64,000 bases of DNA, from NCBI GenBank assembly GCA_964575195.1, contig CAZNPJ010000005.1:108460-172459 (forward strand), given 5' to 3'. Positions 48,768-63,902 of this stretch are shown here, in pieces. The DNA is from an uncultured Phenylobacterium sp. (lineage in GTDB: Bacteria; Pseudomonadota; Alphaproteobacteria; Caulobacterales; Caulobacteraceae). The translations under genes and the position numbers were made by a program. The first letter of the stretch is position 1. The number at the start of each line of letters is the position of its first letter. Below the pieces are notes generated by a model, which ran no database searches, was not told where the DNA came from, and saw only the letters and a program-made list of their open reading frames with translations.

Positions 48768-49678
48768 CAGGTGAGGCCCTTGATTTCGAGACTGCAGAGG
48801 GTCAGGTCGGGATAGGCGATCTCTTCGTCGAACGACGCGAAGAAGCCCCAGATCGCGGTCGAGGTGTATTGGCCGGAGGCCACCCAGAGGGCCGGCGTCG
48901 CCCGGTATGCGGCCAGGGTCTCGGCCAGCTCGTCGGTGAAGTCCGCCGCCACGTTGATCACCGCGTTCATCGTCTTCGAGAAGGCGCGCTCGACCACGAC
49001 GAAGTTGCCGAGTTCGTTGACCTCTTTGCGGGAATAGTCGTCGATCCCGATCCGCACGCCCCACTGCGTCGTGCCCAGAGACTTCGCCAGACCGGGCGTG
49101 ACCAGGCCGCACTTGGCGACCGCGCCCGGATCAGAGAGCACCACGTCCAGCGTCACGCCGGGATAGGGCGGGAGGTCCTGCAGCAGCACAGACTTGAGCC
49201 GCGAGATGGGCTCGAAGCACCATCCATAGAAGTCGGTGATCCCCGATAGCGAGATCAGATCGAAGCTCGCCTCTCGAACGACGCCGTCGACCGCGTCGGT
49301 GATCGTGACGTCCAACGTGGCCGCGTCGAGATTGTCCAGCCAAAGGGTATCCAGCAGGACGCCGCCGTCGAACGCGATCGAGACGGTGATCGTCTCGGCG
49401 TTCTCGGTCTGCGACTGCACCGCGTTGTCGAACATCTTGAAGGCGTTGACCGCCCCGAGATCGACCCAATGATCCTCGGCCACATCGAGCGCCGGGTCGT
49501 TGCCCAGATTGGTCCCGTGAAGACTCTCGAACCGATGCCAGATGTCGTCCTTGAGACGACGCACGATGGCCGCGTCGGCATAGGTCGTCAGCGCCGCCCA
49601 GGCGGCCTCGGTCATGGCAACATTGGTCGTCACCATGCCTGCCGTGATCGGCTCCGGCCGGATAAGGTCGAAGGTCAT
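48767..49678 (-). CDS. Post-tape-measure tail protein (Dit-like, possible carbohydrate-binding insert)
   Basis: ATG overlaps the tape measure stop; DYSRKE...RATPALW...IKGL C-terminal region. Confidence 0.65.
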   Translation of the reverse strand: MTFDLIRPEPITAGMVTTNVAMTEAAWAALTTYADAAIVRRLKDDIWHRFESLHGTNLGNDPALDVAEDHWVDLGAVNAFKMFDNAVQSQTENAETITVSIAFDGGVLLDTLWLDNLDAATLDVTITDAVDGVVREASFDLISLSGITDFYGWCFEPISRLKSVLLQDLPPYPGVTLDVVLSDPGAVAKCGLVTPGLAKSLGTTQWGVRIGIDDYSRKEVNELGNFVVVERAFSKTMNAVINVAADFTDELAETLAAYRATPALWVASGQYTSTAIWGFFASFDEEIAYPDLTLCSLEIKGLT

Positions 49679-52600
49679 GCGACGTCCCTGATTTCGGGCA
49701 TGCCGTCGCCGTTCCAAAGCCTCAGATAGCGAAGGTTGCCGGTGTTGACGACGCCTTGCTCCGTGGCGATCGTGAGCTTGGCGAGGGCCGCGACCACGTC
49801 GGCGTTGGAGATGTTCATGCCGGCGGCGGACAGGTCGACCGCCTCCGATCCGCCAAGCCCCGCGACGGTCGCCTGTGCCGCCGCGACATCGATTCCAACG
49901 AGGCTGGCGGGATCGACGCTCACGACCGGCGTGCTGATATTGGTCGCGGATGCAGCCGACGAGGCCGCCTGCACGGCGGCGGCGACTTGTGAAGCTACGG
50001 CGGCGAGCGCACCGTTCGCCTGGGCCTGGACGGCCGCAGCCGCCTGCACCGCCTTGACGACATCGAGAACGCGATCCTCGACAGCCTTGACGCCGAGCCG
50101 AATGCCGAGCTGTCCCTCGACCATGGAATTCAGCGCGTCGATCTCTGTGCGTGCGGCTGCAGCTTGAGCCTTCGCCAGCGCCTCGCCGTTCGTAAGCGCG
50201 CGACGGATCGACGCCATGTTGCGTGCATTCTCGGCCGAGCTGGCCGCGCCGCCCCGCGAGGCATCGGCGAAGGCCTTCGCAGCGGCGCCCAGCCCATCCA
50301 AAGCCGTTGCGTCACCGCCCGATACCCGCGACGCCAGATTGTCGAACTGTCGCTTCGACGCAGCCAGAGAGCTGGCCGGGCTCGTCGCCAGGCTCTCCGC
50401 TCGGAGACTAGCGTTGAGGTCCGCCAACGACTCGGCCAGGCCATCGAACCGCTCGGCGGTCTTTTCAAGTTGATCGGTGGCCGCGTCGGTAGCGGCCTCG
50501 ACCTGGGCCGTCGACGCTTCGATCTTGGCCGCCCAATCCGCCTCGGCGGCTTCGCGGGCCGCCGTCGCGTCGATGACGTCGTAGATCGCTTGCTTACGGG
50601 CGCGAAGGCCTTCGTCGGTGATGGCCTTGAGTTCGTCTTGCCGCTGCAGGGCCAACGCACCCTGCGCGTCGCCGAGCGCCTCAAGCATTTCCAGCTCAAG
50701 CGCCCGCTGTTGGTCGACCAACTTCTGCGCGTCCTGCTTGGCCCAAATCTCCTTCTGTAGCGCAGCGTTCTCGGCGCTCATTCCCTTGAGCACTTCTTCG
50801 CGCAGCGCCGCCTCGGCGCCCAAGGCGTCACCCGACGCTTCGAGAAGCTGGATTTCGAGCGCGCGCTTAGTCGCGGCCTCCTGCGCGGCCTTCTGTTCGG
50901 CCTCCGCCTTGGCCTTGGCCTCGGCTTCTTTCTTGGCTTTCTTCTTGGCTTTCGACTTGCCGAACAGTCCGCCGATCAGGCCACCGATACCGCCCACGAC
51001 CGCCCCAATGGCGGTGCCGATGCCAGGCACGATCGAACCGAGCTGCGCGCCCAAGGCAACGCCGGAGAGAACCGACCCGCCCACGCCGCCGACATAGGGC
51101 GCGACCGCCCCGGCCGCCGCCCCGACGCCTCCCGCGATTCCGTTGGCCTGTGAGCCCAGCCCACCGGTCATTGCCTTGCCGGCTGCATACGCCTTCTTAA
51201 TGCCGGCGATAGCGCCCTCGATCCCGGAGATCGCGCCGACCCAATCCTTGTTTTTGAAGGCACGGAACAGCCCGTCCACGCTCGCGCTGACGTCGTCGGC
51301 GGCTTCACGGAAGCTCTGGGCAACCGCATCGGTCGCACTAGCCGCCGGCTCGACCATCAACGGACCGAGCTTATCGAACCAGTCGCCGACTTCCTCGACC
51401 ATGTCCGGCACATAGGAATGCCCGACGACAGCGTCGTACATCTTGAAGAAGGCGTCCGAGACCCCTTGAACCTTCTTCTTCACGCTATCGAAGATGGCGG
51501 TCAGCTTATCGACCAACCAGGTCTTCACGGCCAGGAAGGTCTGCTGCACCCACTTGGCGACCTCGGGATACATTGTCCCGAAGGCGTTGGAGACGCCCTT
51601 GACGAACGCCTGCACCGCGCGACCGACGTGCTCGAACGCGCCGCTGAAATCCCCCTTGAACAGTGCGACGATGGCTTGCACCACGTGGGTGACCGCGCCG
51701 ATCATGCCGGTCAGCAAATCGACCACGCCGCCAAGGTAGCGCGCCGCCGCCGCCGCGAAGAAATTGAGGGCCTCGCTCGCGCCGCCCGCGCCGGGCCCGA
51801 AGATCAGGCCGAACACCTCACCCAACGCGGCGACCGCGCCCTTCACCGCCTCGAACAGCGGCGCGACCTTCGGCCCCACGACATCCTGCAGCGTCGTCCA
51901 GAACACCTTGAGCGCCGGCACGATCTGATTCTTGAACAGCAGGAAGGCCGCGACCACGGCGGCGACAGCCAGGCCGACCGGCCCCAGCAACGGCACAAGG
52001 CCCGCCAGCATCGGACCGACGACCGCCATCGCCGAGATCACCGAACCCAGTGCCGAGGTGAAGGCGCCACCGACGAGAACAGCGGCGCCGAACGCCGCCG
52101 CCGCCGCGGCGACCGCGACGCCGACCTTGAGCAGCACAGGGTCGGCTTCGCTTAGCTTTTCGAGCAGACCCGTCAAGCCGCTGACGAGGGCGGTGGCCGC
52201 CTGCAAGAGACCGGCTTTCCCGATGGCGATGCCCAGATCCTCGAACGACCCGCGCAGTTGTTCCATCTGGCCGGCGAAGCCTTCCATCCGCTTCGCCGCC
52301 TGGGCCGCTGCGTCGGTCTCCGCGATCTTCTGCTTGATCTTGTCCAGGCCTTGCGCGCCCAGATCCATCAAGCCAAGCGCCGTCCGCATGGCGTCGGTCC
52401 CGAAGATGTCCTTCAGAACTTCGTTCTTCGCCTCGTCGGACAGGCCGCCCAGCTTCTCCCGCAGCATCTCGGCGATGTCGGAAACCGACTTCATCCGGCC
52501 GCCAGCGTCAAAGAACGACAGGCCGTACTGCTGCATGGCCGCCGCGGCGTCTTTCGACTTCGGGACAAGCGTCGTCAGGAACGTTTTGAAGCTCGTCCCC

Positions 52601-53289
52601 GCATCAGAACCCGACGAGAACAACGCTGAGGTCCCGGCGATCGCGGCGTTGAAATCCTCGAAGCTGACACCCAGGCCCGCCGCCACGCCGCCGGCCTGAC
52701 CCAACGCCAGCGCATAGTCGTCGAACGACAGCTTCGATTGGTTCACCGCGCCGGTGATCTGATTGACCGTCGCGGGAAGCTGGTCGCTGCTCCGCTTGAA
52801 CTGCTGGATGCTGTCGCTGATCGCCGAGGCCGCAGGCTCCAGCTCGCTACCCGCCGCGGCCGCGAGATCGACCGCCGCCTTCGCCGCGCCGCCCAGGATC
52901 GTTTGCACGTCCAGGCCGGTCTTCGCCAGCATATCCATGGCATCCGCCGCCTCGCTGGCGCTGAACACCGTACTCTTGCCGATCTGGCGGGCGGCCGTTT
53001 CCAGCGCCCCCATCTCCTTCGCTGTCGCCTGCGTGGAGATCGACACCTTGTTCATGGCCGTTTGGAAATTGGCCGAGGCCTTGAGCGCGCTCGCGCCGAG
53101 GGCCACCACAGGGGCGGTGATGCCGATGGCCAGGATGCCCCCAACCTTCTCCATCGCCGCACCCACGGACTGCATCCGCGCGCCAGCCTTCCGCAACTCG
53201 ACCTGGGCCTTGCTCAGGCCTTCGGTGAAGGTTGCGGACTCCAGACCCAGCACGACGCGAAGGGCGCCGATGGTGGCGTTACCGGCCAT
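49675..53289 (-). CDS. Phage tail tape measure protein
   Basis: 1204 aa Ala-rich; TP901-type core (FSASEAADAM...GSDAGTSFKT...IFGTDAMR); follows the tail chaperones. Confidence 0.95.
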   Translation of the reverse strand: MAGNATIGALRVVLGLESATFTEGLSKAQVELRKAGARMQSVGAAMEKVGGILAIGITAPVVALGASALKASANFQTAMNKVSISTQATAKEMGALETAARQIGKSTVFSASEAADAMDMLAKTGLDVQTILGGAAKAAVDLAAAAGSELEPAASAISDSIQQFKRSSDQLPATVNQITGAVNQSKLSFDDYALALGQAGGVAAGLGVSFEDFNAAIAGTSALFSSGSDAGTSFKTFLTTLVPKSKDAAAAMQQYGLSFFDAGGRMKSVSDIAEMLREKLGGLSDEAKNEVLKDIFGTDAMRTALGLMDLGAQGLDKIKQKIAETDAAAQAAKRMEGFAGQMEQLRGSFEDLGIAIGKAGLLQAATALVSGLTGLLEKLSEADPVLLKVGVAVAAAAAAFGAAVLVGGAFTSALGSVISAMAVVGPMLAGLVPLLGPVGLAVAAVVAAFLLFKNQIVPALKVFWTTLQDVVGPKVAPLFEAVKGAVAALGEVFGLIFGPGAGGASEALNFFAAAAARYLGGVVDLLTGMIGAVTHVVQAIVALFKGDFSGAFEHVGRAVQAFVKGVSNAFGTMYPEVAKWVQQTFLAVKTWLVDKLTAIFDSVKKKVQGVSDAFFKMYDAVVGHSYVPDMVEEVGDWFDKLGPLMVEPAASATDAVAQSFREAADDVSASVDGLFRAFKNKDWVGAISGIEGAIAGIKKAYAAGKAMTGGLGSQANGIAGGVGAAAGAVAPYVGGVGGSVLSGVALGAQLGSIVPGIGTAIGAVVGGIGGLIGGLFGKSKAKKKAKKEAEAKAKAEAEQKAAQEAATKRALEIQLLEASGDALGAEAALREEVLKGMSAENAALQKEIWAKQDAQKLVDQQRALELEMLEALGDAQGALALQRQDELKAITDEGLRARKQAIYDVIDATAAREAAEADWAAKIEASTAQVEAATDAATDQLEKTAERFDGLAESLADLNASLRAESLATSPASSLAASKRQFDNLASRVSGGDATALDGLGAAAKAFADASRGGAASSAENARNMASIRRALTNGEALAKAQAAAARTEIDALNSMVEGQLGIRLGVKAVEDRVLDVVKAVQAAAAVQAQANGALAAVASQVAAAVQAASSAASATNISTPVVSVDPASLVGIDVAAAQATVAGLGGSEAVDLSAAGMNISNADVVAALAKLTIATEQGVVNTGNLRYLRLWNGDGMPEIRDVA

Positions 53290-53304: not shown

Positions 53305-53637
53305 CTAGGGTTTCTCGGCCATGCGACGGCGCACCCGATCTGACGCAGGCGTCGGAACGGCGCCGGGTTCGGCGCGAGGCGGCGTCACGGATTGCCAACG
53401 GGCCAGGAACGCCATCGCCTGACCCAGAGTTTGCTTGGCCTGGGAGGCCCGCTCGCCCATCAGCTTGCGAAGCGGGATCAACCGCTTCATTCGTCCCAAG
53501 GCCACGACGTGCCAGGCCAGCCAGGCCCGGCCCTTTTGCGCCGTCGCCTCGGCGCGCCAGGCCCCGCGAAGGGCCAGGCGCAGGAGGCGTGGCGTCAACC
53601 GCCAAAACTCGTCGGATGAGCCTAGGCGGTATTCCAT
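53305..53637 (-). CDS. Tail assembly chaperone T-like ORF
   Basis: EFWRLTPR...AWLAWHVVAL motif; lies between chaperone G and tape measure. Confidence 0.75.
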   Translation of the reverse strand: MEYRLGSSDEFWRLTPRLLRLALRGAWRAEATAQKGRAWLAWHVVALGRMKRLIPLRKLMGERASQAKQTLGQAMAFLARWQSVTPPRAEPGAVPTPASDRVRRRMAEKP

Positions 53638-53684
53638 CCACTGGCCGTAGAGGCTGGGCCAGTTCCAGCCGACGCCGTCGGCCC

Positions 53685-54038
53685 TTAGACCGTCGGCGCC
53701 CGCGGAGGGTCCCCGGCGGCTTCGCCGGCCTCCGTGTCGCTGGCGAACGCCGCCGAGAAGGCCTCGGCGATCAGGGCGCCGGCTCGGCCCAAGCCGATGC
53801 GGTCGATTATCTCGCCCGCGGCCTTGGCCGATATGTCGGGGTGATGCGCCGCAAGCCCAGCCTGGAACACGCCGCGGAGCATCTTCAGCCGCATCTTGTT
53901 TTGCATGGCCTCGCCAATCTCGGCGACGCTCATGTCGAAGGTCTCCTCAAGGCCGCAAAGCGCGTCCAGATTGAAGAGCAGGACGAAGGTGTCCTCCCCA
54001 GCGGGGAAGGACACTTCGCCTTTCAGCTTGTTGGTCAT
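53685..54038 (-). CDS. Tail assembly chaperone G-like protein
   Basis: NKLKGEV...FNLDALCGLEE; follows the tail tube gene. Confidence 0.8.
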   Translation of the reverse strand: MTNKLKGEVSFPAGEDTFVLLFNLDALCGLEETFDMSVAEIGEAMQNKMRLKMLRGVFQAGLAAHHPDISAKAAGEIIDRIGLGRAGALIAEAFSAAFASDTEAGEAAGDPPRAPTV

Positions 54039-54046
54039 CGGGCCGC

Positions 54047-54478
54047 TTAGCTCGCGACGACCGTGGCGGTGACCTTGACCGTGAGGGTCGCGGTCATCTT
54101 GTCGTCAAACGGCGCGTCGGGCTCCCAGCCCGTGACGAACGCGTCGAACTCCCACACGACGTTGTTCGGGAACGTGATGCGGCAAGTCCGCACCTCGCGC
54201 GAGATCCGCCAGGCGCGCACGAAGGCGTCGCCATTCGTGGCCGCGTTCGTACCGGGGATGAAGTTGCACCCCAGCGACGCCTCGCCCGGATCGGTGAGTC
54301 CCTGGATGAATTCGCGGGTCGAGTTCGGGCTACCCGTATGGGTCACGTCGATCACGTCGACGCTGTCGCTCGGCGGCGACAGGGACGTCACCTCGGGCAT
54401 CTCGAAGAAGACGTTGGAGTTGGCGGCGGTTTCGACTTCGAACTTTGCGCCGTAACCCGTCATGGCGTTGGTAGACAT
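54047..54478 (-). CDS. Major tail (tube) protein
   Basis: IDVTHTGSPNSTREFIQGLTDPGE...FDAFVTG...MTATLTVKVT. Confidence 0.9.
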   Translation of the reverse strand: MSTNAMTGYGAKFEVETAANSNVFFEMPEVTSLSPPSDSVDVIDVTHTGSPNSTREFIQGLTDPGEASLGCNFIPGTNAATNGDAFVRAWRISREVRTCRITFPNNVVWEFDAFVTGWEPDAPFDDKMTATLTVKVTATVVAS

Positions 54479-54492
54479 CGCGTTGAATCCTT

Positions 54493-54900
54493 TCAGTTAT
54501 CTTCGCTGTGACAGACCCGGTAGTCACGCCGGATGCGGTAGATCTCGGTTGCGGACTTGCCGCCCTGCGGCCCCGCCGCCGGCTCCCAGCCCTCGCCCTC
54601 GTCTTCGAGCATCCAGCCCGAGAGGAAAGGCGCGCCGGCAAGGCCGTTCAGCGCGTGACGGACCGCCTCGGCGACCGCAAAGGCCTCGGCATAGTCGAGG
54701 CCCCGGCTGTCGATCTGGACGCGGCTTCGAACGAAGCCATCCGGGCCCTTCTGAGTCTGGCCGCGAGGTCCGCTGACGACCGTGAGGGTGACATTCGGAT
54801 AGGCGACGCCCTGCCGGTGGACGACCCACTCGACACGGCGATCGACAAGCTCGATCAGCGCGGGATCGTCGCGGAGGTGCGTTCGCGTCTCGGCGCGCAT
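54493..54900 (-). CDS. Tail terminator (DUF3168-like)
   Basis: SRVQIDSRG...AEAVRHAL; position before the tail tube. Confidence 0.8.
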   Translation of the reverse strand: MRAETRTHLRDDPALIELVDRRVEWVVHRQGVAYPNVTLTVVSGPRGQTQKGPDGFVRSRVQIDSRGLDYAEAFAVAEAVRHALNGLAGAPFLSGWMLEDEGEGWEPAAGPQGGKSATEIYRIRRDYRVCHSEDN

Positions 54901-55359: not shown

Positions 55360-55713
55360 CTAGGTCCGCGCCTCGCCGGCTCGGCTGGCGGTGATTTCAA
55401 GGCCTTCGCGGCGACCGACCGGCTTCACCGCGCGGATGTCATAAGCCCAGCCGTCGAAGGTCAGTTGATGTTCAGCGCCGAGGCCTGCCACGTCCGGCGT
55501 CCAGCGGATCAGAAAGCGATCGGTGACCGAGACGGACGTAGCCGCCAAGGCACGCGCACGCTCGTCATCGAGCACCGGCGTGTGCTTTGCCCACACCGCG
55601 CCGTCCGGCGCCGAACTTCCGAACGAAACCCAATCCACCCCGTCGGAGAGCGGCCCCTCGCTTGGGACCGCCCGCCGCAGGATGACGCGGCGATCAAGTT
55701 CGCCCGCGTTCAA
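55360..55713 (-). CDS. Head closure / head-tail adaptor (SPP1 gp16-like)
   Basis: AGELDRRV...VWA...FLIRW...YDIRAV...GLEI; TTG start. Confidence 0.85.
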   Translation of the reverse strand: MNAGELDRRVILRRAVPSEGPLSDGVDWVSFGSSAPDGAVWAKHTPVLDDERARALAATSVSVTDRFLIRWTPDVAGLGAEHQLTFDGWAYDIRAVKPVGRREGLEITASRAGEART

Positions 55714-55715
55714 CG

Positions 55716-56219
55716 TCAGGCGCCGATGACGACGATGTCGAAGGTCACGGACGACCCGGACCCGCCGTTGGCGATCTTCAGCAGATCGGCCGTCGCGGCG
55801 GTCAGCGCGAAGCCGTTGGCCGTCGGCGCGGTCAGCAGCAGAAGGCCGCCCGGCGGAATCTTGACCTTGTCGGTCGCCGACCCGAACATGCTGACGAAGC
55901 CGTTCGAGGCGGCGCCGCCGACCACCACATCGTTCGTATTCGCAGCGGCGGCCGAGATCATCAGCGCCTTGATCTTCGTCGGCGAGAACGTGGCGCCGAA
56001 CCCATCGGTCAGGGTGCCGTTGAGGTCGAGATCCTCAGAGGACGACGCGGAAAGGCTGCGGGTGTCGGAGAAGACCTTGTTCGCCTGGTTCAGACCCGCC
56101 CCGTTGGCGAAGCTGACCTTTTTGGTGACAGCGAACTTCTGCTCCAGCGTGGAGAGATCGTTGTCGCCACGATAGACACCGGCGATCGACGCCAGGATTT
56201 CAAGCGCAAGCGTGCTCAT
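55716..56219 (-). CDS. Phage hypothetical beta-rich structural-type protein
   Basis: 167 aa, Ser/Thr/Gly/Ala-rich, inside the head-tail joining module. Confidence 0.7.
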   Translation of the reverse strand: MSTLALEILASIAGVYRGDNDLSTLEQKFAVTKKVSFANGAGLNQANKVFSDTRSLSASSSEDLDLNGTLTDGFGATFSPTKIKALMISAAAANTNDVVVGGAASNGFVSMFGSATDKVKIPPGGLLLLTAPTANGFALTAATADLLKIANGGSGSSVTFDIVVIGA

Positions 56220-56280
56220 GTTGAGCCTCCGTAGGGTTGAATGTCAGGAAGGGCCGGCGATACGCGCCGGGGGAACGGGG

Positions 56281-57450
56281 TCAGGCCAGCACGAGGCGCG
56301 CGGCTTCGATCTTGGCGGACAGCGCCTTGACGCCATCGGCCAGGGTCAGGGCCTCGGCCGTGCGGGCGGCCAGTTGGGCGTCGCGGTCGGCCAGCGCGGC
56401 CTTGGCCGCCGCCAGCTCGGCCTTGGCGGACTTGAACTCGGCTTCGTCCAGCGCGGCGGCGAGGCTGATGTCCGCGCCGGGCTTCACCACGTCGGCGTCG
56501 TCGTCGCCCCGCTTGCCCGCGCCCGGCGCCACGGTATTTCCGCTGCGGATCAGGCCCGTGCAGGACGAGACGTTGATCGAGGCGCGGCCCTCCGGCTGCG
56601 GATAGGTGCTGACCGCGTTGCGGAGGATCCGCACGTCGCGGCCCTCGCTCACACAGATGCCGTGCGGGAAGGCGACGCAGATGTCGTTGTCCTCGATCAG
56701 CACACGGTCGAAGCCGCCGTCGTTCAACCGCTCGGCCACCGTCAGCTTGCGGCCATCGGCCAGGGTCGTTCCGGCGGGATAGCTGCGCGTGTGGTTGAAC
56801 ATGCCCACGCCCTGGGCGCGGCCCTGCATCTTGTTGCGGCGAATGACGATGTCGGCGCAGGGCGGCGAGGTCGCCCGGCTCCAGAGCTGCACACAGTCCG
56901 GGTGCGCGCCCGCGGGCGGCATGAACCCGGCGAACCGGTTGTCCTCGATCGTCACGTCCTGCGAGCTGCCGAACTGACAGCCATCCGTGCCCATGCGGCT
57001 GAAGCCATTGTCATGCACCCACGCCTTGCGGCAGCGGTCGCCGACGACGCCCGAGCGGACGTTCTGGAACAGGCCGTTCTTGACCTCGATGTCCTCGCAC
57101 CCGATCAGCCAGATTCCGTTGCCATCGACCTGCACCAGGTCGTCGCCGGTCACCGTCTGGCCGTCGAACACCAGGCGCTTGCCGCCGTCGATCCGCAGCG
57201 GATTGGCCCCGCGCAGCTCGCCGCCCTTGAACACCACGCCCGACAGGCGCGCGTACCAGCCCAGGGCTTGCTTCGTGATCCCGCCGCTGTCGATCACGGC
57301 GCCGGTCAGGTCCAGCGTCACCGACGGCGAGAAGTCACCCCCGTGGCGCATCATGCCCTTGAACACGCCCACCATTTTCAGCGTGTCGCCGCCCCGCACC
57401 TTCGGCCAGACGGCGGCCATGGTTTCGGGCGTCGCGGTCAGGATGGTCAT
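56281..57450 (-). CDS. Right-handed beta-helix (pectin lyase-like) protein with C-terminal coiled coil
   Basis: Repeats DIEVKNGLF, KAWVHDNGF, DVTIEDNRF, DIVIRRNKM, RVLIEDNDI, DVRILRNAV; HPDCVQ; start re-picked at ATG 57450. Confidence 0.85.
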   Translation of the reverse strand: MTILTATPETMAAVWPKVRGGDTLKMVGVFKGMMRHGGDFSPSVTLDLTGAVIDSGGITKQALGWYARLSGVVFKGGELRGANPLRIDGGKRLVFDGQTVTGDDLVQVDGNGIWLIGCEDIEVKNGLFQNVRSGVVGDRCRKAWVHDNGFSRMGTDGCQFGSSQDVTIEDNRFAGFMPPAGAHPDCVQLWSRATSPPCADIVIRRNKMQGRAQGVGMFNHTRSYPAGTTLADGRKLTVAERLNDGGFDRVLIEDNDICVAFPHGICVSEGRDVRILRNAVSTYPQPEGRASINVSSCTGLIRSGNTVAPGAGKRGDDDADVVKPGADISLAAALDEAEFKSAKAELAAAKAALADRDAQLAARTAEALTLADGVKALSAKIEAARLVLA

Positions 57451-57461
57451 GGCGCAGGCTC

Positions 57462-59336
57462 CTAGACGGTCTTCAGGTAGCCGCGCTCGGTCATCCCCGA
57501 GAGCAGCCAGGAGTTGAAGGCGAGGCGCAGGCTGGCCGAGCCCAGGTTGATACCGCGGCGGAAGTCGGTCGCCCGACCGCGCCACAACTCCTGCGGGACG
57601 ACGCCGTCAACGGACCCATCCGAACTCGCCAGCCAGGCGCTGGCGGGCGTGGCGCTCGAAGCCCCAGCCAGGGCGAACTTCTCGCGGTTGGCCTGGACGT
57701 CGGGGTCCCAATAGCTGCCGAAGACGGCGAAGTCCCCAAGCCGGAAGCGGCCGACCAGGGCGCCGGGCGTACCCGAGCCCACCGGGAAGGTGCCGTGACC
57801 GAAGCCGCGGATCGACCCCGCCAAATTGGCTTTGGCGCCGGGGTTGGCGACGATATGGGCTGTGGAGTTGGTCACCGACGTTGGCGTCACCGACGGGTTT
57901 ACGAAGTGCCGGACCTTGGCGATGCCGTTCGGGATGTCCCACGCCATCATCACCCAGCGGGCCGCCGTTGGCGCGCCGCCCGAGGTCCAGACGTTCGTCG
58001 AGAAGTCGGCGTTGAAGACGTTGCCCGAAGCATCGGAACCCAGCGTCACGTTCATGCCGCCGGTCGTCTGCATGGTGATGCCGGGCGCGATCCGGTTCTG
58101 CAGGCCAACGCCCGCCGCCGTGGCCTGGGCCCTGAAGATGATGAGCCCCGTCGCCGTGCTGGTGAGCTGGCCGGCGTAGGCCGCATAGAGGATGCTGGCG
58201 CCGTCGAACTCGACCAGGAAGCTCTCGCCGGCGGCCGCGCGCTCGCCCACCAGGATCCGCTTCTGCACCTTGTCCACGTAGCCGGATTTCCGGGTGCGGA
58301 CGTGCACTTCGGTGAGATCGCGCGCTGGGACGATTGCGGTCTTACGGGTAATCAGGCCCGAGGCCGAGACGTCATAGTCGGACTGCACATTGCTCGGCGC
58401 CAGGTCCACGCCGGACGAGACCGCCGCGTAGGTGTTCGTCGCGTTGTCCCAGGCGCTGTAAAAGACGATCGACCCGATGCTGTCGTTGATCGCCGGCGTT
58501 GACGGAGCCTGCGGCGTGATCCGCTGACGCAGCGGGTATGGGGTGCCGCCGTCGATGGCTTCGCGGACGTGAGCGACCTCCTGCCCGACCGTCTCGTAGC
58601 CGTTGTCGTTCATGTGTGACCCGTTGGTCATCATGGCCGACCGCGGCGAGTTCAGGCGGTTCATGTCGGTCGTGTCGTTGGCATCGACCGCCGTGTAGTT
58701 GTCCATCAGGGCGTAGAAGAAGTCGATGACCCGGCCCGGCGTGTCCTCGCTATGGAGGTCGAAAAGCAGCTCCTTGTTGTAGTAGGTGGCCGATCCGGGG
58801 GCCTCCGAATAAGCCGACGTGCCGTTCCAGGATCCGCGCGTGTTCACGCACATCAGGAAGGGGCCGACGCTGGAGATCGAGGCCCGTAGCGCGGCGAGGC
58901 CGGTCTTAACCGTCGTCAGTTCGGCGGCGCTGTCGACGCCCCCGTCGTTGTCACCGACGTGCAGGATGAAGAAGTCGTCGGCGGCGAAATTGCTGCTCTC
59001 GTTGTTGAACCGGGTCGTGACCATGGCGATCGTGTCGCCGTTGACGCCATGGTTATGCACCACCTTGCCATTGGTCGCCGTGTACTTCCGGTTCGTATAG
59101 GTGACCGAGCCGAATTGCTCGGTCGCTATGGTGTATGAGGGGTCGGCCAGGGCCGCCATCTTCTTGGTGATGTTCCAATTGACTTGGCCCGTGCCTTCCA
59201 TCGAAGACGAGCCATATCCCCAGACATTCCGCGCCAGGGCCGGGATCGTCGTTCCCGGCGTGACGCCGCCTTGCGTCACACCCTTCGGCCGGACCCCCAC
59301 GCCGAACGCCGACAGACCGTTGAGACCGTAGGGCAT
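57462..59336 (-). CDS. SGNH/GDSL-like hydrolase domain fused to a beta-sandwich region (putative head/neck fibre)
   Basis: GSSSMEG (block I), NHGVNG (II), HVGDND (III), NGSHMN (V); Ser/Thr/Gly-rich C-terminal half. Confidence 0.75.
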   Translation of the reverse strand: MPYGLNGLSAFGVGVRPKGVTQGGVTPGTTIPALARNVWGYGSSSMEGTGQVNWNITKKMAALADPSYTIATEQFGSVTYTNRKYTATNGKVVHNHGVNGDTIAMVTTRFNNESSNFAADDFFILHVGDNDGGVDSAAELTTVKTGLAALRASISSVGPFLMCVNTRGSWNGTSAYSEAPGSATYYNKELLFDLHSEDTPGRVIDFFYALMDNYTAVDANDTTDMNRLNSPRSAMMTNGSHMNDNGYETVGQEVAHVREAIDGGTPYPLRQRITPQAPSTPAINDSIGSIVFYSAWDNATNTYAAVSSGVDLAPSNVQSDYDVSASGLITRKTAIVPARDLTEVHVRTRKSGYVDKVQKRILVGERAAAGESFLVEFDGASILYAAYAGQLTSTATGLIIFRAQATAAGVGLQNRIAPGITMQTTGGMNVTLGSDASGNVFNADFSTNVWTSGGAPTAARWVMMAWDIPNGIAKVRHFVNPSVTPTSVTNSTAHIVANPGAKANLAGSIRGFGHGTFPVGSGTPGALVGRFRLGDFAVFGSYWDPDVQANREKFALAGASSATPASAWLASSDGSVDGVVPQELWRGRATDFRRGINLGSASLRLAFNSWLLSGMTERGYLKTV

Positions 59337-59340
59337 GGCG

Positions 59341-59649
59341 TCAGGCGCTCGCGATCATGGCGACGCGTTCGTTCGCCACGGTGACGTTGAACTCATAGGG
59401 GCCGCCCGCCGGCAGCAGATGCCCCGCATCCTCGGCCGCCGTGGGCGTGCCCGCGCCGTGCTTGGTGAAGGCGTCGCCGCCGGTCAGCACGATCCGCCAC
59501 ACCTGCCCCGGCTGGCCGGTCAGGTCCGAGAGCTGGCTCGACCCGGTCAGGGTCTTGGTGTCGGCGCCGATCTCGACCGAGTCCGGCGCGTTGATCCCAT
59601 TGACCCCGCGCATGCCGGCGGACAGCAGGACGATGTGCATTTTCGCCAT
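59341..59649 (-). CDS. Small phage protein (possible head-spike base)
   Basis: 102-aa beta-rich ORF between the connector and the large fibre-like gene. Confidence 0.65.
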   Translation of the reverse strand: MAKMHIVLLSAGMRGVNGINAPDSVEIGADTKTLTGSSQLSDLTGQPGQVWRIVLTGGDAFTKHGAGTPTAAEDAGHLLPAGGPYEFNVTVANERVAMIASA

Positions 59650-59727
59650 GGGCCAGGATCTCCAGTGCTGTTCGGGGTGTCGGGCGCGAAGTCTCTAAAG
59701 ACTTCGGCGCGGGCCGGTCGGCGGGCG

Positions 59728-60300
59728 TCAGGCGACGCCGAGCGGCCGATAGTTGCTGATGACGTCCAGGGCGCGTTGCGGGGTCGCCCCGCCCTCGCGA
59801 TCCTTGTGCAGGGCGCCGACCATGAGCTTCAGCGCGCCGATCAGGTTGCCGGGAATGTCCGCCGGGTCGGGACCGAAGCCGGCCTTGAATTCGATGCGGA
59901 CCGCCCCCGGCTCGCACCGGGTCGTCGGCCAGCACGTGCCGAAGGTGGGCGACAGGACGGCGGGGTCGATCCCCGTCGCCAGTTGATAGTCGCCGGGGTC
60001 GACCGCCTGCAGCACGCCGGCGACGTCCACATACTTGACCGACACGATCGCCGACGTCGGGCCGAGCGGGATCGCGATATGCCGCTCGAACCGATCCAGC
60101 GTCAGCCGCCAGGTCTGTTCGATCAGGCAGAACCCCTTGCCCTTCGGCCCGTCGATCTCCGCGATCGCGTCGGCGACCAGGCCCTCGATCACCGAGTCCT
60201 CATAAGCCCCCTCGACCTTCAGATGCGCCTTCGCATCCTCGACCGACAGCGCCAGGACCGCCGGCGCCGTCACAAGCGTCAGCCGGTCCCAGCCGCTCAT
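59728..60300 (-). CDS. Head-tail connector (gp6-like, phiE125 gp8 type)
   Basis: LSVEDAKAHL...LIEQTWRL...VRIEFKAGFG...ALKLMVGALHKDRE. Confidence 0.9.
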   Translation of the reverse strand: MSGWDRLTLVTAPAVLALSVEDAKAHLKVEGAYEDSVIEGLVADAIAEIDGPKGKGFCLIEQTWRLTLDRFERHIAIPLGPTSAIVSVKYVDVAGVLQAVDPGDYQLATGIDPAVLSPTFGTCWPTTRCEPGAVRIEFKAGFGPDPADIPGNLIGALKLMVGALHKDREGGATPQRALDVISNYRPLGVA

Positions 60301-60651: not shown

Positions 60652-61926
60652 CTAGGCCAGCTTGAGGTGCTTCACGGCCGCGGCCGTGCCCAGCTCGCCG
60701 TCGAAACGGATCAAGCCGGCGATGCCCATGTCCGGCCAGAACCGCTCGCGCAGCACGCCGATGACCGGCGCGCCGACCTTGCGGACGTAGTAGCGGCCGA
60801 GGTCACCGAACAGGATCAGCTTCTGCCCCGTGGTGAAGGCGGAACTCATGTCCTGATTGATGCTGTAGTTGTAGCCCAGCAGCGTGCCGGGCGCGCCCGT
60901 GCGGACGTCGCCCATCTGCCACAGGTAGTTGCCTTGGCCGTCCTTGAGCTTGCGGATGGCCGCGAACACCAGGTCGTGGAACATGAACCGCGCCTTCGGC
61001 GAGCGGCGATAGGCCGGGTCCACCGAATGCAGCAGGTCGATGATCTCGTCCGCGGTGAAGGCGGTCGTCGATGCGGCGGTCTTGCCGGCCGCCGAGGCGG
61101 TGACGATCCCGTTCGGCGCCGAGCTGCCCGAACCCGTGGTGAGCTGGGCGTTGCCGATGCGGCCCAGGCGTTCGCCCAGCAGCGAGCCCAACAGGCTTTC
61201 CATCGAGAAGATGCTGTCGGAGTCCAGCTCCCACGACCACTTCACGAACTCGGTGTCGAAGCTGAAGGCGTCCAGCGACTTCTGACCGAAGGTCACGTCC
61301 TCCGAGCCATCGTCCGTCAGGGCCGCCGCTTCCGTGTGGGCGGCGCCGCTCTTGGCGGTGTCGTCGACGGTCGGGATCTTCAGCGGGTTGCCGCCCGAGG
61401 TCGTGATGACCGTGGCGACATCGCTGTCGTACATCGGCCCCCAATCCTTCATGGCCTTCTCGATGAAGCCCAGGATTTCGGTCGGGACGGTGAAGCCGCC
61501 GGCCGTGGTCGTGCCGGCCGTCTGCGCGCGCTGTTCGAACTTGGCCGTGCCGGCCCGCAGGACGGCGCGTTCCTCGGGTTCGAGGTCGGCGGGGTTCACG
61601 CCGCAGACCACCTTGGCGAAGACGTGGCGATAGGTGATCTCGGCGTCGCCTGGACCCGACTTGTCGTTCTCGGACGAGCGGTCCTCTTGGTTCGGGCGCC
61701 GGCCAGCGTTGGCGTTGCGCGCGCGCTCCTCGGCTTCGACGAGCTTGGTCTCGCGCTGGGCGCGGGCTTCCAGCTTGTCCCACTCCGCCATGGCGGCGTC
61801 GTGCTGGATCTCCAGCTCCTTCGAGCGGCTTTCGTCGGTCGAGGTGCTGATCTGGTTGAGACGCTCGCGAGCTTCGGCCAGCAGTGTGGCCTGCTTCTCA
61901 CGGAGCTCCCGGAGGTGCTGAGACAT
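60652..61926 (-). CDS. HK97-fold major capsid protein
   Basis: N-terminal coiled-coil delta domain, GGFTVPTE, GSGSSAPNGI, KLKDGQGNYLW, RFDG. Confidence 0.96.
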   Translation of the reverse strand: MSQHLRELREKQATLLAEARERLNQISTSTDESRSKELEIQHDAAMAEWDKLEARAQRETKLVEAEERARNANAGRRPNQEDRSSENDKSGPGDAEITYRHVFAKVVCGVNPADLEPEERAVLRAGTAKFEQRAQTAGTTTAGGFTVPTEILGFIEKAMKDWGPMYDSDVATVITTSGGNPLKIPTVDDTAKSGAAHTEAAALTDDGSEDVTFGQKSLDAFSFDTEFVKWSWELDSDSIFSMESLLGSLLGERLGRIGNAQLTTGSGSSAPNGIVTASAAGKTAASTTAFTADEIIDLLHSVDPAYRRSPKARFMFHDLVFAAIRKLKDGQGNYLWQMGDVRTGAPGTLLGYNYSINQDMSSAFTTGQKLILFGDLGRYYVRKVGAPVIGVLRERFWPDMGIAGLIRFDGELGTAAAVKHLKLA

Positions 61927-61996: not shown

Positions 61997-62596
61997 CTAG
62001 AGGCGCGAAGCCGTGCGGGCGCGCAGGTCGATGTCCGCGCGCAGCCGAAGGGGATTGGCCGCCGCCGGCGACCGCGATTTCAACTGACCGGCGCTGCGCG
62101 CCTCGGCCAGGCAGCGAACGCCGACCTGTGTGTCATCGTAGGCGGGATACGTCACCGGCGAGACGTCGAGCAGCTCGACCTCCAGAATGGTCCGCACCGG
62201 CAGCTCGCCGGTGTCGTCCCACTCTTGCCGCGTCGCGCGGAAGGCAAAGCTCGATTGGCTGACGTCGCCACGGTCGATCAGCGTGACCAGGTCACGCGCC
62301 CAGGCGGTGTCGGGCGTATCGACCTCGTACCGCAGCCCCTTTTCGTCTTCCGACAGACGCAGCGTCCCCGAGGCCGTCCGCCCCAGAACCAGGTTGTCGG
62401 AATGGTTGAACAGGCAGCGGACGTCGTCGCGCGCGATGGCCGCCGCGAAGGCGCCCGGCGCGATGCGCTCGATAAAATAATCCCCGATCCGCGCGTCGGA
62501 ATTGAACACGGCGGCATAGCCCACGATCTGGCGCGGCTGACCCTCAACGGGGGCGCGGCGTTCGATCTGGCCCAAGGTGCGGACTTCACGCGTCAT
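61997..62596 (-). CDS. HK97-family prohead protease
   Basis: GYAAVFN, LFNH, SFAF, DVSPVTYPAY; start re-picked at ATG 62596. Confidence 0.95.
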   Translation of the reverse strand: MTREVRTLGQIERRAPVEGQPRQIVGYAAVFNSDARIGDYFIERIAPGAFAAAIARDDVRCLFNHSDNLVLGRTASGTLRLSEDEKGLRYEVDTPDTAWARDLVTLIDRGDVSQSSFAFRATRQEWDDTGELPVRTILEVELLDVSPVTYPAYDDTQVGVRCLAEARSAGQLKSRSPAAANPLRLRADIDLRARTASRL

Positions 62597-63902
62597 CGGT
62601 CGATTCCCCTTCGGTGTTGCTTTGCGGATCGACCGGCATGTCGCCGATTTGGCCGGGCGGATTGGCGGTCTCGCCCGCCTTCTCCAGCGGAACGGTCGCC
62701 CCCTGGACAAGCAGGTCGTCGCCGCCGGGAAGCGGCGGCCGGTTCTCGCGGGCGCGGGCTTCGTTCGGCGTGAGCTGGCCGGTCTGGATGGCGCGGGCGT
62801 TGCCCTCCATCCGGGTTTTGAAGTCGCCGCGCTGCAGGCCGTCCATGCCGAGTTCGACGTATCGGGCGAAGTTTCGCGGGCCGTAGAACTTGGCGTTGCA
62901 CTCGGTTTCGAGCTGCTCGCACCAGTGCGCGACGGTGTGCTTCGAGACGTGCAGATCCTGCTGTTCGGTATTGGCGAACGAGCCGTGCGTCAGATCCTGC
63001 AGGAAGATCGGCGGCAGATTGAGGATGCGGGCGAACTGCTCGACCAGGAACCGTTGCCAATCGACGAGCTGGGCCTTCTGCGGATCGAAGGCCACCGGCA
63101 CAAGCTCATAGCCATCGGGCACGAGCAGGATCGGGTCGCCGTTCGCGTTCGCGCTGGCGATCGTGGCGTTCACGTCCTTCTTCGCGCGCGCCGCGGCGCC
63201 GGGCGAACCGATGGCGCCCTTGAGCGCCAGCGGCGGCACGCCGCCCTTGCCGAAGAACTTCAGCCCGTATTTCTCAATCACCAGGGCCAGGGCGAACAGA
63301 TCGCGATACCGCTCGACCGGGTTGAAGATGCTCACGCCGTCCAGCTTGTCGGCCCAGACCAGGTCGAGAACCTCGGCGACCGGATAGACCTGCGGCGGGC
63401 CGCCGTCGCGATAGACGAACCGCGTCCGCCCGCGCACCCGTTCCTTGGTCGTATGCCGCGTCTCCAGCGGCCACAGGTTCACTGGCTTGCCGCCGGCGTC
63501 CTGCTCGATCCACGTCCGCCCGGCGCCGGTCAGGAACACCGACCGCAGGCTTTGCTCGCGCCACTTGTAGGACGTCAGATAGTCGTCGTTCACCGTGCCG
63601 GCCAACATGCCGGCGATCATTCCGCGCTCGACGCGTTCGGTTCCGCCGGCGGCCTTCTTGAACTCATGGAACGGCAGCGCCGCCATGGTCCGCGCCAGGA
63701 AGTTCACGCCGCAGGCGTAGGCGGGCACGCTCATCACCGTGTCGGCGTTGACGACGATACCGACCGACACGGCCCAATCGGCCATGCCGAAAAGCGACGC
63801 CATGCCGGCCGTGTCCGACAGCGGAACGAGCGGGTTCTCAAGCGGCTGTTCGCGCTTCTCGCCCCCCTGCCCCCAACGGATCTCGACCGGTCCAAACCGC
63901 AC
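62586..63902 (-). CDS. HK97-family portal protein
   Basis: PAYACGVNFLA, FARILNLPP, SFANTEQQ, TPNEARARENRPP. Confidence 0.95.
   Translation of the reverse strand: MRFGPVEIRWGQGGEKREQPLENPLVPLSDTAGMASLFGMADWAVSVGIVVNADTVMSVPAYACGVNFLARTMAALPFHEFKKAAGGTERVERGMIAGMLAGTVNDDYLTSYKWREQSLRSVFLTGAGRTWIEQDAGGKPVNLWPLETRHTTKERVRGRTRFVYRDGGPPQVYPVAEVLDLVWADKLDGVSIFNPVERYRDLFALALVIEKYGLKFFGKGGVPPLALKGAIGSPGAAARAKKDVNATIASANANGDPILLVPDGYELVPVAFDPQKAQLVDWQRFLVEQFARILNLPPIFLQDLTHGSFANTEQQDLHVSKHTVAHWCEQLETECNAKFYGPRNFARYVELGMDGLQRGDFKTRMEGNARAIQTGQLTPNEARARENRPPLPGGDDLLVQGATVPLEKAGETANPPGQIGDMPVDPQSNTEGESTDDA

Follow-up and report, generated by a model that had tools for sequence, protein, structure and literature searches.

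A small all-β phage protein family linked to peptide-anchored fibers, and its proposed role as a fiber socket in a Phenylobacterium prophage

Four co-oriented genes lie between the head-tail adaptor gene and the head-closure gene of an HK97-like siphophage prophage in an uncultured Phenylobacterium sp. (assembly GCA_964575195.1, contig CAZNPJ010000005.1). They occupy positions 55,716–59,649 of the analyzed window, a stretch of 64,000 nucleotides that corresponds to positions 108,460–172,459 of the contig, and encode, in order of transcription, proteins of 102, 624, 389, and 167 amino acids, here called p102, p624, p389, and p167. This arrangement, first pointed out in an earlier reading of the same DNA (the original prediction), is confirmed by the positions of the open reading frames (ORFs) and by matches of the two flanking genes, the adaptor Ad1 (phrog_442) and the head closure Hc1 (PF05521). 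The intergenic gaps had been given as 2–60 bp; from Ad1 through p102, p624, p389, and p167 to Hc1 they measure 78, 4, 11, 61, and 2 nt. We find that p102 belongs to an unnamed phage protein family linked to a short N-terminal anchor peptide in the protein encoded downstream, and that p102, p624, and p389 form a relocatable trio.

The p102 family comprises 359 representative clusters (clustered at 50% identity) at E≤1e-3 in a full HMMER profile search, and almost all of its members are stand-alone proteins of 100–110 amino acids. The family has no name and no annotation, with a weak match to phrog_32858. A word-indexed homologue search returned three relatives of p102 and one of p624, and a scan of viral contigs with p102 alone as the query returned none. 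The AlphaFold2 model of p102 is all-β, with seven strands and an extra long N-terminal β-hairpin, at a predicted local distance difference test (pLDDT) score of 93. Matches to this model in BFVD at template modeling (TM) scores of 0.7–0.9 are, every one, unnamed phage proteins. Genes of the family follow the adaptor gene in at least three backbones (the lineage of the window; loci L033 and L141, where they lie directly before the head closure Hc3; and L146), and the portal gene in L013 and L144. At L013 (G143), a stand-alone p102 homologue is followed by a 215-amino acid gene that is hexapeptide-transferase-like by eye.

At loci with available DNA, an ORF begins −4 to +58 nt after the p102-family gene and starts with a peptide of alternating Leu and Gly, followed by a basic, Gly-containing tail. 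Examples of this N-terminus are MALSLGLGMGLNRNKG in Caulobacter phage DMCA, MTMVSLGLGLGLTM in L031, MSLSLGLGLALTRNKG in L036 and L138, MMALGLGLGLGVSTLSKGGG in L032, MAGMSLGLSLGLNL in G148, and MLGMGLGLGISLGRG in L137. In many loci these "star" peptides are regular, with exactly five hydrophobic residues, one at every other position. At 10 of 19 loci in a first set and at 7 of 12 in a second (17/31 overall), the star score was ≥4. The background for this score was provided by 1484 gene ends of the host genome evaluated by the same fixed rule, 1.8% of which score ≥4, 0.07% ≥6, and 10.8% ≥3. The RPKG tail of the p624 anchor aligns with the RNKG and SKGG tails of regular star peptides.

Comparison with relatives places a module boundary at residues 31–34 of p624. 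The host genome contains two further prophages, C16 and C17. In C17, a 50-amino acid ORF that follows the p102 homologue is 58% identical to the p624 anchor. At locus L135, Ad1 is followed by a p102 that is 89% identical to that of the window and then by a protein of at least 595 amino acids, which is 68% identical to p624 over residues 1–31 and unrelated beyond. The alignment of p624 with its C16 paralogue, and with P0006, the one homologue of the p624 body outside the host genome, starts only at residue 34. These three comparisons together mark residues 1–31/33 of p624 as a unit that goes with p102. The original prediction had put forward that a small base is paired with a fiber N-terminus; this pairing is real and constitutes our strongest result. 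The payload is exchanged among relatives: L135, for example, keeps p102 and the anchor and changes the rest.

The star or anchor peptide also occurs as a free-standing ORF of 46–54 amino acids before a large gene, namely in DMCA (gp023, L028:16065–16208), C17 (C17:35481–35633), L032, L036, L039, L141, and L142. Free-standing star ORFs have a short internal repeat within their C-terminal half. Such an ORF could encode a separate "plug" protein, or could be joined to the next gene by frameshifting.

Beyond its anchor, p624 shows partial similarity to Lipase_GDSL_2 (PF13472); the whole protein scores 22.7 bits and its N-terminal piece 24.4 bits, short of the cut-off of 32.9 bits. The SGNH blocks are recognizable as block I (GYGSSS, Ser44), Gly97, block III (GDND, Asn130), and block V (NGSH, His241), and these four residues are invariant in an alignment of three homologues (p624, the C16 paralogue, and P0006). 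To judge from these blocks, p624 is a putative SGNH-type carbohydrate esterase; it has no signal peptide. For the fold of the p624 body, phmmer and profile searches against PDB chain sequences came back empty; motifs in its C-terminal part look LamG-like by eye, but we make no claim of such a fold. Star-anchored payloads elsewhere include Lipase_GDSL_2 (44.9 bits, L030) and SASA (84 bits, L022) matches and, in G148, β-helix and LamG domains. Coliphage G7C gp63.1 is reportedly an O-antigen deacetylase, and is an example of a virion-borne enzyme of the SGNH/sialate-O-acetylesterase type. p624 resembles proteins of this type as a predicted carbohydrate esterase that would bind or modify a receptor, and in its conserved Ser, His, and oxyanion residues. 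Unlike p624, which would be held by a 31–33-residue peptide matched to a small socket, those proteins are anchored to the tail through trimeric N-terminal adaptor domains.

A small base paired with a peptide-anchored fiber is known from the head spike of the Rhodobacter capsulatus gene transfer agent (GTA), RcGTA, which consists of the base Rcc01079 (GhsA; NF048002) and the head fiber Rcc01080 (GhsB) (Westbye 2016; Hynes 2016, PMC5026251; Bardy 2020, PMC7296036). Residues 2–10 of Rcc01080 (IALGLGLGL) form a five-point star in hydrophobic pockets of the Rcc01079 pentamer, which is located on capsid pentons (PMC7296036). In phage RcapNL, gp29 is a homologue of Rcc01079, and gp30, which comes next, starts MGLGLGIGLGLS. 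The spike base gene of this phage lies at the end of the late region, after the lysis gene, and its product carries the annotation "tail fiber protein" (phrog_12296).

The p624 body is itself found with such a base. P0006, which is 35–37% identical to p624 over residues 34–624, begins 1 nt after a 79-amino acid protein in locus L136 that passes NF048002 at 45.8 bits (cut-off 28 bits), as does the other control for this model, RcapNL gp29, at 106 bits. The same fiber body is therefore paired with a curated Rcc01079-family spike base in another Phenylobacterium phage and with p102 in the window, and p102 and GhsA thus behave as interchangeable sockets. In the host genome there are two genes for p102 and none for GhsA. 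Besides this shared fiber body, the p102-family system resembles the RcGTA spike in having a small all-β base (about 85–105 amino acids) encoded directly upstream of a protein with an N-terminal peptide of alternating hydrophobic and small residues, in the swappable, glycan-directed distal part, and in the mobility of its genes among phage late regions and polysaccharide loci. It differs in several respects: p102 is without sequence, profile, or Foldseek similarity to the spike base and has the extra N-terminal hairpin in its model, the window anchor is irregular with six hydrophobic residues, the fiber bears a putative esterase domain, and the capsid location of p102 is proposed by analogy.

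The trio is relocatable. A phage on IMG/VR contig 3300048855_000185 shares the backbone of the window prophage (tape measure 59% identical over 675 amino acids), yet its slot reads Ad1, p167, Hc1, and p102, a 784-amino acid star fiber, and a 414-amino acid β-helix protein are at the tail end. In L031, a β-helix gene lies 3′ of the star fiber. The p102 homologue of C17 (39% identical) comes after the last tail-tip gene and is followed by the 50-amino acid ORF, a 211-amino acid ORF, a 614-amino acid protein with an SGNH-like block I, a 427-amino acid β-helix protein, and the lysis genes; the adaptor/head-closure slot of C17 contains a 138-amino acid gene (C17:25173–25589). The C16 paralogue of p624, which is 50% identical over residues 34–623 and has a different N-terminus of about 130 amino acids, adjoins a β-helix gene where the tail module ends. 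The original prediction saw the module as compensating for a minimal tail tip; it is present as well in sister phages that have a homologous distal-tail protein. Closer relatives retain p102 immediately 3′ of the adaptor and vary the large gene: one metagenome contig has Ad1, p102, a 789-amino acid protein, a 165-amino acid protein, and Hc1, and L025 has Ad1, a p102-family gene, a 136-amino acid protein (1598–2008), and Hc1, with no fiber. The 136-amino acid protein has a weak match to PF09956 Phage_cement_2 (E 3e-3; scored for L025 only). In this lineage, accessory genes of the capsid surface may generally collect in the adaptor/head-closure slot.

The late operon is read from the minus strand of the window, as are all ORFs treated here (Table 1). 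The tape measure gene is followed on its 3′ side by genes for a distal-tail-like protein, a few small tip proteins, and an endolysin. No promoter-like or terminator-like sites above chance were found in 53.5–62 kb, and the four genes therefore appear to be embedded in the late operon; independent transcription was rejected on the same grounds. Their GC content at third codon positions (0.88–0.94 for p102, p624, p389, and p167) is the same as that of neighboring genes. A mobile-element origin of the inserted genes was rejected, as there are no significant flanking repeats, and so was a defense-system moron, as PADLOC gives no match. The 78-nt gap between Ad1 and p102 contains a perfect short hairpin (GAAGTCT-tta-AGACTTC, 59680–59700, minus strand) without a T-run.

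Table 1. Features of the late operon around the adaptor/head-closure slot (positions in the window)
Feature	Position	Strand	Remarks
Portal	62586–63902	−	Followed by a protease gene
Major capsid protein	60652–61926	−	PF05065; followed by an 89-amino acid gene
Head-tail adaptor Ad1 (gp6-like, 190 amino acids)	59728–60300	−	phrog_442, E 2e-21; PF05135 at 19 bits, below cut-off; upstream border of the slot
p102 (102 amino acids)	59341–59649	−	Small all-β protein; proposed oligomeric socket, analogue of the spike base
p624 (624 amino acids)	57462–59336	−	Putative fiber/enzyme: anchor, SGNH-like esterase domain, and conserved C-terminal body
Anchor peptide, p624 residues 1–33	59238–59336	−	Starts MPYGLNGLSAFGVGVRPKG; proposed plug for the p102 oligomer
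SGNH-like esterase domain of p624 (about amino acids 35–265)	58542–59234	−	Alignment blocks and partial Pfam match
p389 (389 amino acids)	56281–57450	−	Right-handed β-helix protein; PF13229
p167 (167 amino acids)	55716–56219	−	Jelly-roll protein; phrog_22694, E 2e-53
Head closure Hc1 (117 amino acids)	55360–55713	−	PF05521 at 48.2 bits (cut-off 25); phrog_25; downstream border of the slot
Tape measure	49675–53289	−	Preceded by Tc-type neck/tail-completion protein (phrog_5), tail terminator, and major tail protein

The β-helix protein p389 is likely to be an exopolysaccharide (EPS) glycanase. Its score is 39.1 bits for PF13229 (cut-off 25.9) and 27.1 bits for NosD (cut-off 23.6). Its start is most likely the ATG at 57450, because a start at the GTG at 57585, where the mechanically called 434-amino acid ORF begins, would overlap the p624 gene by 124 nt. 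p389 lacks a signal peptide and ends in a coiled-coil-like C-terminal tail. At 39% identity, it is related to a lipoprotein-like β-helix protein of a chromosomal exosortase/EPS locus on contig C2, which also has genes for an exosortase, glycosyltransferases, and dTDP-sugar synthesis. Three β-helix paralogues of p389 (39%, 27%, and 27% identity) are found at C2:~41000–72200, and this locus is a candidate for the origin of the phage enzyme and for the receptor polymer. A preprint on RcGTA describes TspA (rcc00171) as a loosely attached β-helix tailspike that degrades polysaccharide (bioRxiv 10.64898/2026.07.19.739414). By this description, p389 is similar to TspA as a predicted β-helix glycan-degrading enzyme beside a device of the head-spike type, and in its relationship to host polysaccharide loci; it differs in its C-terminal coiled-coil-like tail and in having no recognized N-terminal docking domain.

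The fourth gene of the slot is an independent resident. p167 is a separate, widespread accessory jelly-roll protein outside the p102-p624-p389 trio, because in related phages it occurs alone between the adaptor and head closure, as in Microcystis phage Mae-JY04, Bradyrhizobium phage ppBeUSDA76-1, L015, and IMG/VR contig 3300048855_000185 (L098). The proposal that the four genes form a single cassette does not hold in this respect. Elsewhere, homologues of p167 adjoin HK97-gp10-like, tail-tube, terminator, or head-closure genes. There are at least 375 protein clusters and at least 470 IMG/VR matches of such homologues. Identity of p167 is 58–66% between phages with adaptors that are only about 30% identical. 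The homologues are far more conserved than the surrounding structural genes and move among the junctions of the neck/tail-tube block (loci L041–L120). In Streptomyces phages Keanu and Hiyaa, the p167 homologue follows the capsid gene, within a block that also contains a methyltransferase and a 1106-amino acid protein and precedes the adaptor. We regard p167 as a mobile accessory protein that probably belongs to the virion.

AlphaFold2 models p167 as a jelly roll that has a long hairpin at its N-terminus (pLDDT 91). Among solved structures (Foldseek, PDB) this model finds only generic jelly rolls at TM scores of 0.3–0.45 and no convincing match; the Pam1 capsid chain 7eel_H is matched at E 9e-3 and a TM score of 0.31. 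Assignment of p167 as a decoration, cement (e.g., PF09956 Phage_cement_2), or collar protein was rejected, as it has no Pfam, NCBIfam, or PDB sequence match. Both p167 and p102 have an N-terminal hairpin and a β sandwich, but kinship between them was rejected at an hhalign probability of 0.4%.

We propose that the trio is a receptor-handling module inserted between the adaptor gene and p167, consisting of a p102 socket, a peptide-plugged esterase fiber, and a β-helix glycanase, and give this reading a probability of about 0.55. p102 would form a small oligomeric socket on the virion, presumably, by analogy with the RcGTA head spike, a pentamer at the five-fold vertices of the capsid. The glycine-rich residues 1–31/33 of p624, with their spaced hydrophobic residues, would plug into this socket, and the rest of p624 would hang as a flexible fiber, with the SGNH-type esterase followed by a C-terminal body that presumably binds glycan. 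In this way p624 would bind and de-O-acylate a surface polysaccharide of the host. p389, either held loosely on the particle or freed at lysis, would cleave this polymer as well. We infer the oligomeric state, the capsid location, the enzyme activities, and the substrate in this scheme. The kind of device envisaged in the original prediction is thereby retained; its four-gene unit, its mounting as read from gene position, and homology of the base to GhsA are not.

A number of results weigh against the proposal. The original prediction had cited the RcGTA spike base as a precedent, but p102 has no match to NF048002 at E≤0.01 (cut-off 28 bits). hhalign gives its alignment a probability of 0.19% against a 12-sequence GhsA alignment and of 0.7% against RcapNL gp29. 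Neither phmmer nor a profile hmmsearch finds p102 in PDB sequences, and RcGTA chains are absent from the top 50 Foldseek PDB matches of the p102 model. With these phmmer, hmmsearch, hhalign, NCBIfam, and Foldseek negatives, homology to the RcGTA spike base was rejected: p102 seems to work like a spike base and is not a detectable member of the Rcc01079 family. The anchor of p624 departs from the regular pattern of five alternating hydrophobic residues, its six being spaced 2, 3, 3, 2, 2. Taken alone, the star score of 3 for this anchor is not significant, as 10.8% of the background reaches this value. The SGNH match of p624 is below the Pfam cut-off, and the triad Asp, located three residues before the His, is Asn238 in p624 (Asp in the C16 paralogue and P0006). 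Lastly, in the family member P0241, a p102 domain forms the N-terminus of a 1086-amino acid protein. We count the fusion itself among the evidence for the proposal, but the protein is encoded in a chromosomal EPS cluster (L027:10001–13261, Logan contig SRR31358627_82) along with type I secretion, glycosyltransferase, hexapeptide transferase, and β-helix genes, which implies that the p102 fold is not intrinsically capsid-binding.

The site of attachment bears on the same question. By analogy, we give the capsid vertices about even odds. In their favor, the only solved case of a peptide docked in a socket sits on capsid pentons (PMC7296036), a peptide with five points is well matched to a free five-fold axis, and p102-family genes come after the adaptor gene in at least three backbones and after the portal gene in L013 and L144. 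Location of the genes between the adaptor and head closure had been offered as evidence for a head or neck position, but a sister phage and C17 have the trio or p102 module at the tail end. Roughly half of all p102-family genes are found at the tail end or next to lysis genes, and gene position therefore does not discriminate between head and tail mounting. A tail-mounted side fiber, with p102 as a tail-tip or baseplate adaptor and p624 and p389 as an ordinary tail fiber and tailspike whose genes moved to the neck block, is an unlikely but substantial alternative. It would explain the classical tail-fiber position of the p102 homologue and fiber, directly after the tail-tip genes, in C17, G148, Caulobacter phage DMCA, L031, and L039, their position after a holin-like or endolysin gene in G333 and L030, and the "tail fiber protein" annotation of the RcapNL homologue of Rcc01079. 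It also draws on a comparison that counts against the capsid: between the window prophage (C5) and C17, the tail-tip proteins (p130, 76%; C-terminus of p234, 64%) are among the best conserved, together with the anchor (58%), and head and neck proteins are only 24–39% identical. On the other hand, the genes of true head-spike bases also end late regions or lie among lysis genes, as in RcapNL, which makes the tail-end p102 genes neutral on mounting. Tail mounting is further disfavored by the solved precedent on pentons, by p102-family genes that, in several unrelated backbones, come after a portal, capsid, or adaptor gene, and by the five-residue star, which fits a free five-fold axis better than a tail axis filled by the tube or tape measure.

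Some siphophages have, as in the neck passage and collar-whisker structures of lactococcal phages, accessory carbohydrate-binding structures at the neck. A comparable device, like these or like T4 whiskers, in which p102 and possibly p167 sit on the adaptor or head-closure rings and p624 is a neck fiber, would be consistent with the p102-family genes of two or three unrelated backbones whose place is exactly between the adaptor gene and the head-closure gene, and with the p167 homologues at many neck-gene junctions. We consider a neck location improbable, however, since p102-family genes are just as often far from neck genes, including at the tail end in relatives, and a star of five hydrophobic residues is unsuited to neck rings of 6- or 12-fold symmetry. 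Foldseek searches of the PDB with p102 and p167 found no similarity to known collar or whisker proteins, and there is likewise no sequence similarity to the lactococcal structures.

The trio might instead encode accessory enzymes outside the virion, namely a soluble esterase and glycanase freed at lysis or modifying the host surface in the lysogen, with p102 a chaperone or unrelated. The β-helix proteins of C16 and C17 start with signal peptides of the Sec type and end in long, coiled-coil-like C-terminal tails, which suggests that they are exported glycanases rather than virion parts and means that such enzymes need not belong to the virion; this, too, weighs against the proposal. (By eye, the two proteins, C17:38161–39444 and C16:~53600–54799, have near-identical N-terminal regions.) The p102 domain in the chromosomal EPS locus points the same way, as does RcGTA TspA, which reportedly comes off and works as a free biofilm-degrading enzyme (bioRxiv 10.64898/2026.07.19.739414). 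Opposed to this are the lack of signal peptides in p624 and p389, the position of the genes within the late structural operon at gaps of 4 and 11 nt with no promoter-like or terminator-like sites above chance, and the lack of a PADLOC match. Moreover, an N-terminal anchor co-inherited with p102, together with a payload that is swapped at a fixed boundary, is a hallmark of receptor-binding proteins docked on the virion. A non-virion role for the whole trio is improbable, but for p389 alone it is plausible. The pairing of a de-O-acylase with a depolymerase in the original prediction is plausible and recurs in sister phage L031; C16 and C17 likewise have an esterase-like gene beside a β-helix gene, but the β-helix proteins there bear signal peptides.

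A socket holding a peptide-plugged enzyme fiber thus remains our preferred reading. The class of device, the head spike of RcGTA, is known, and the variant here would be a different family of sockets within it. It is possible, at somewhat less than even odds, that the p102 family is a second capsid-vertex socket, structurally unrelated to GhsA, that converged on or was exchanged into the GhsA system of docking a five-point peptide. In that case, head spikes tipped with enzymes would not be confined to GTAs but would make up a modular adsorption layer general to tailed phages, and the "plug" ORFs of 47–54 amino acids would be free-standing adaptor peptides. Two unrelated bases for one fiber body, and unrelated bodies on one base and anchor, are a clear natural example of plug-and-socket modules of host range. 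The occurrence of a p102-family member in a cultured phage, Caulobacter phage DMCA of C. vibrioides CB15, makes the prediction directly testable; a literature search found no paper on this phage. For annotation, our results are a caution that gene position in the late operon poorly predicts the site of a fiber on the particle. Should p102 be a socket for peptide-anchored fibers, a function could be assigned to a large family of small phage proteins that has no annotation. The corresponding sequence rule, namely a small β protein and, next to it downstream, an ORF with (Leu-Gly)n and then a basic-Gly tail at its start, would pick out receptor-binding proteins that current annotation misses or calls "hypothetical." This rule, which ties an unnamed small-protein family to peptide-anchored, swappable, enzyme-bearing fibers, is the most useful product of the analysis.

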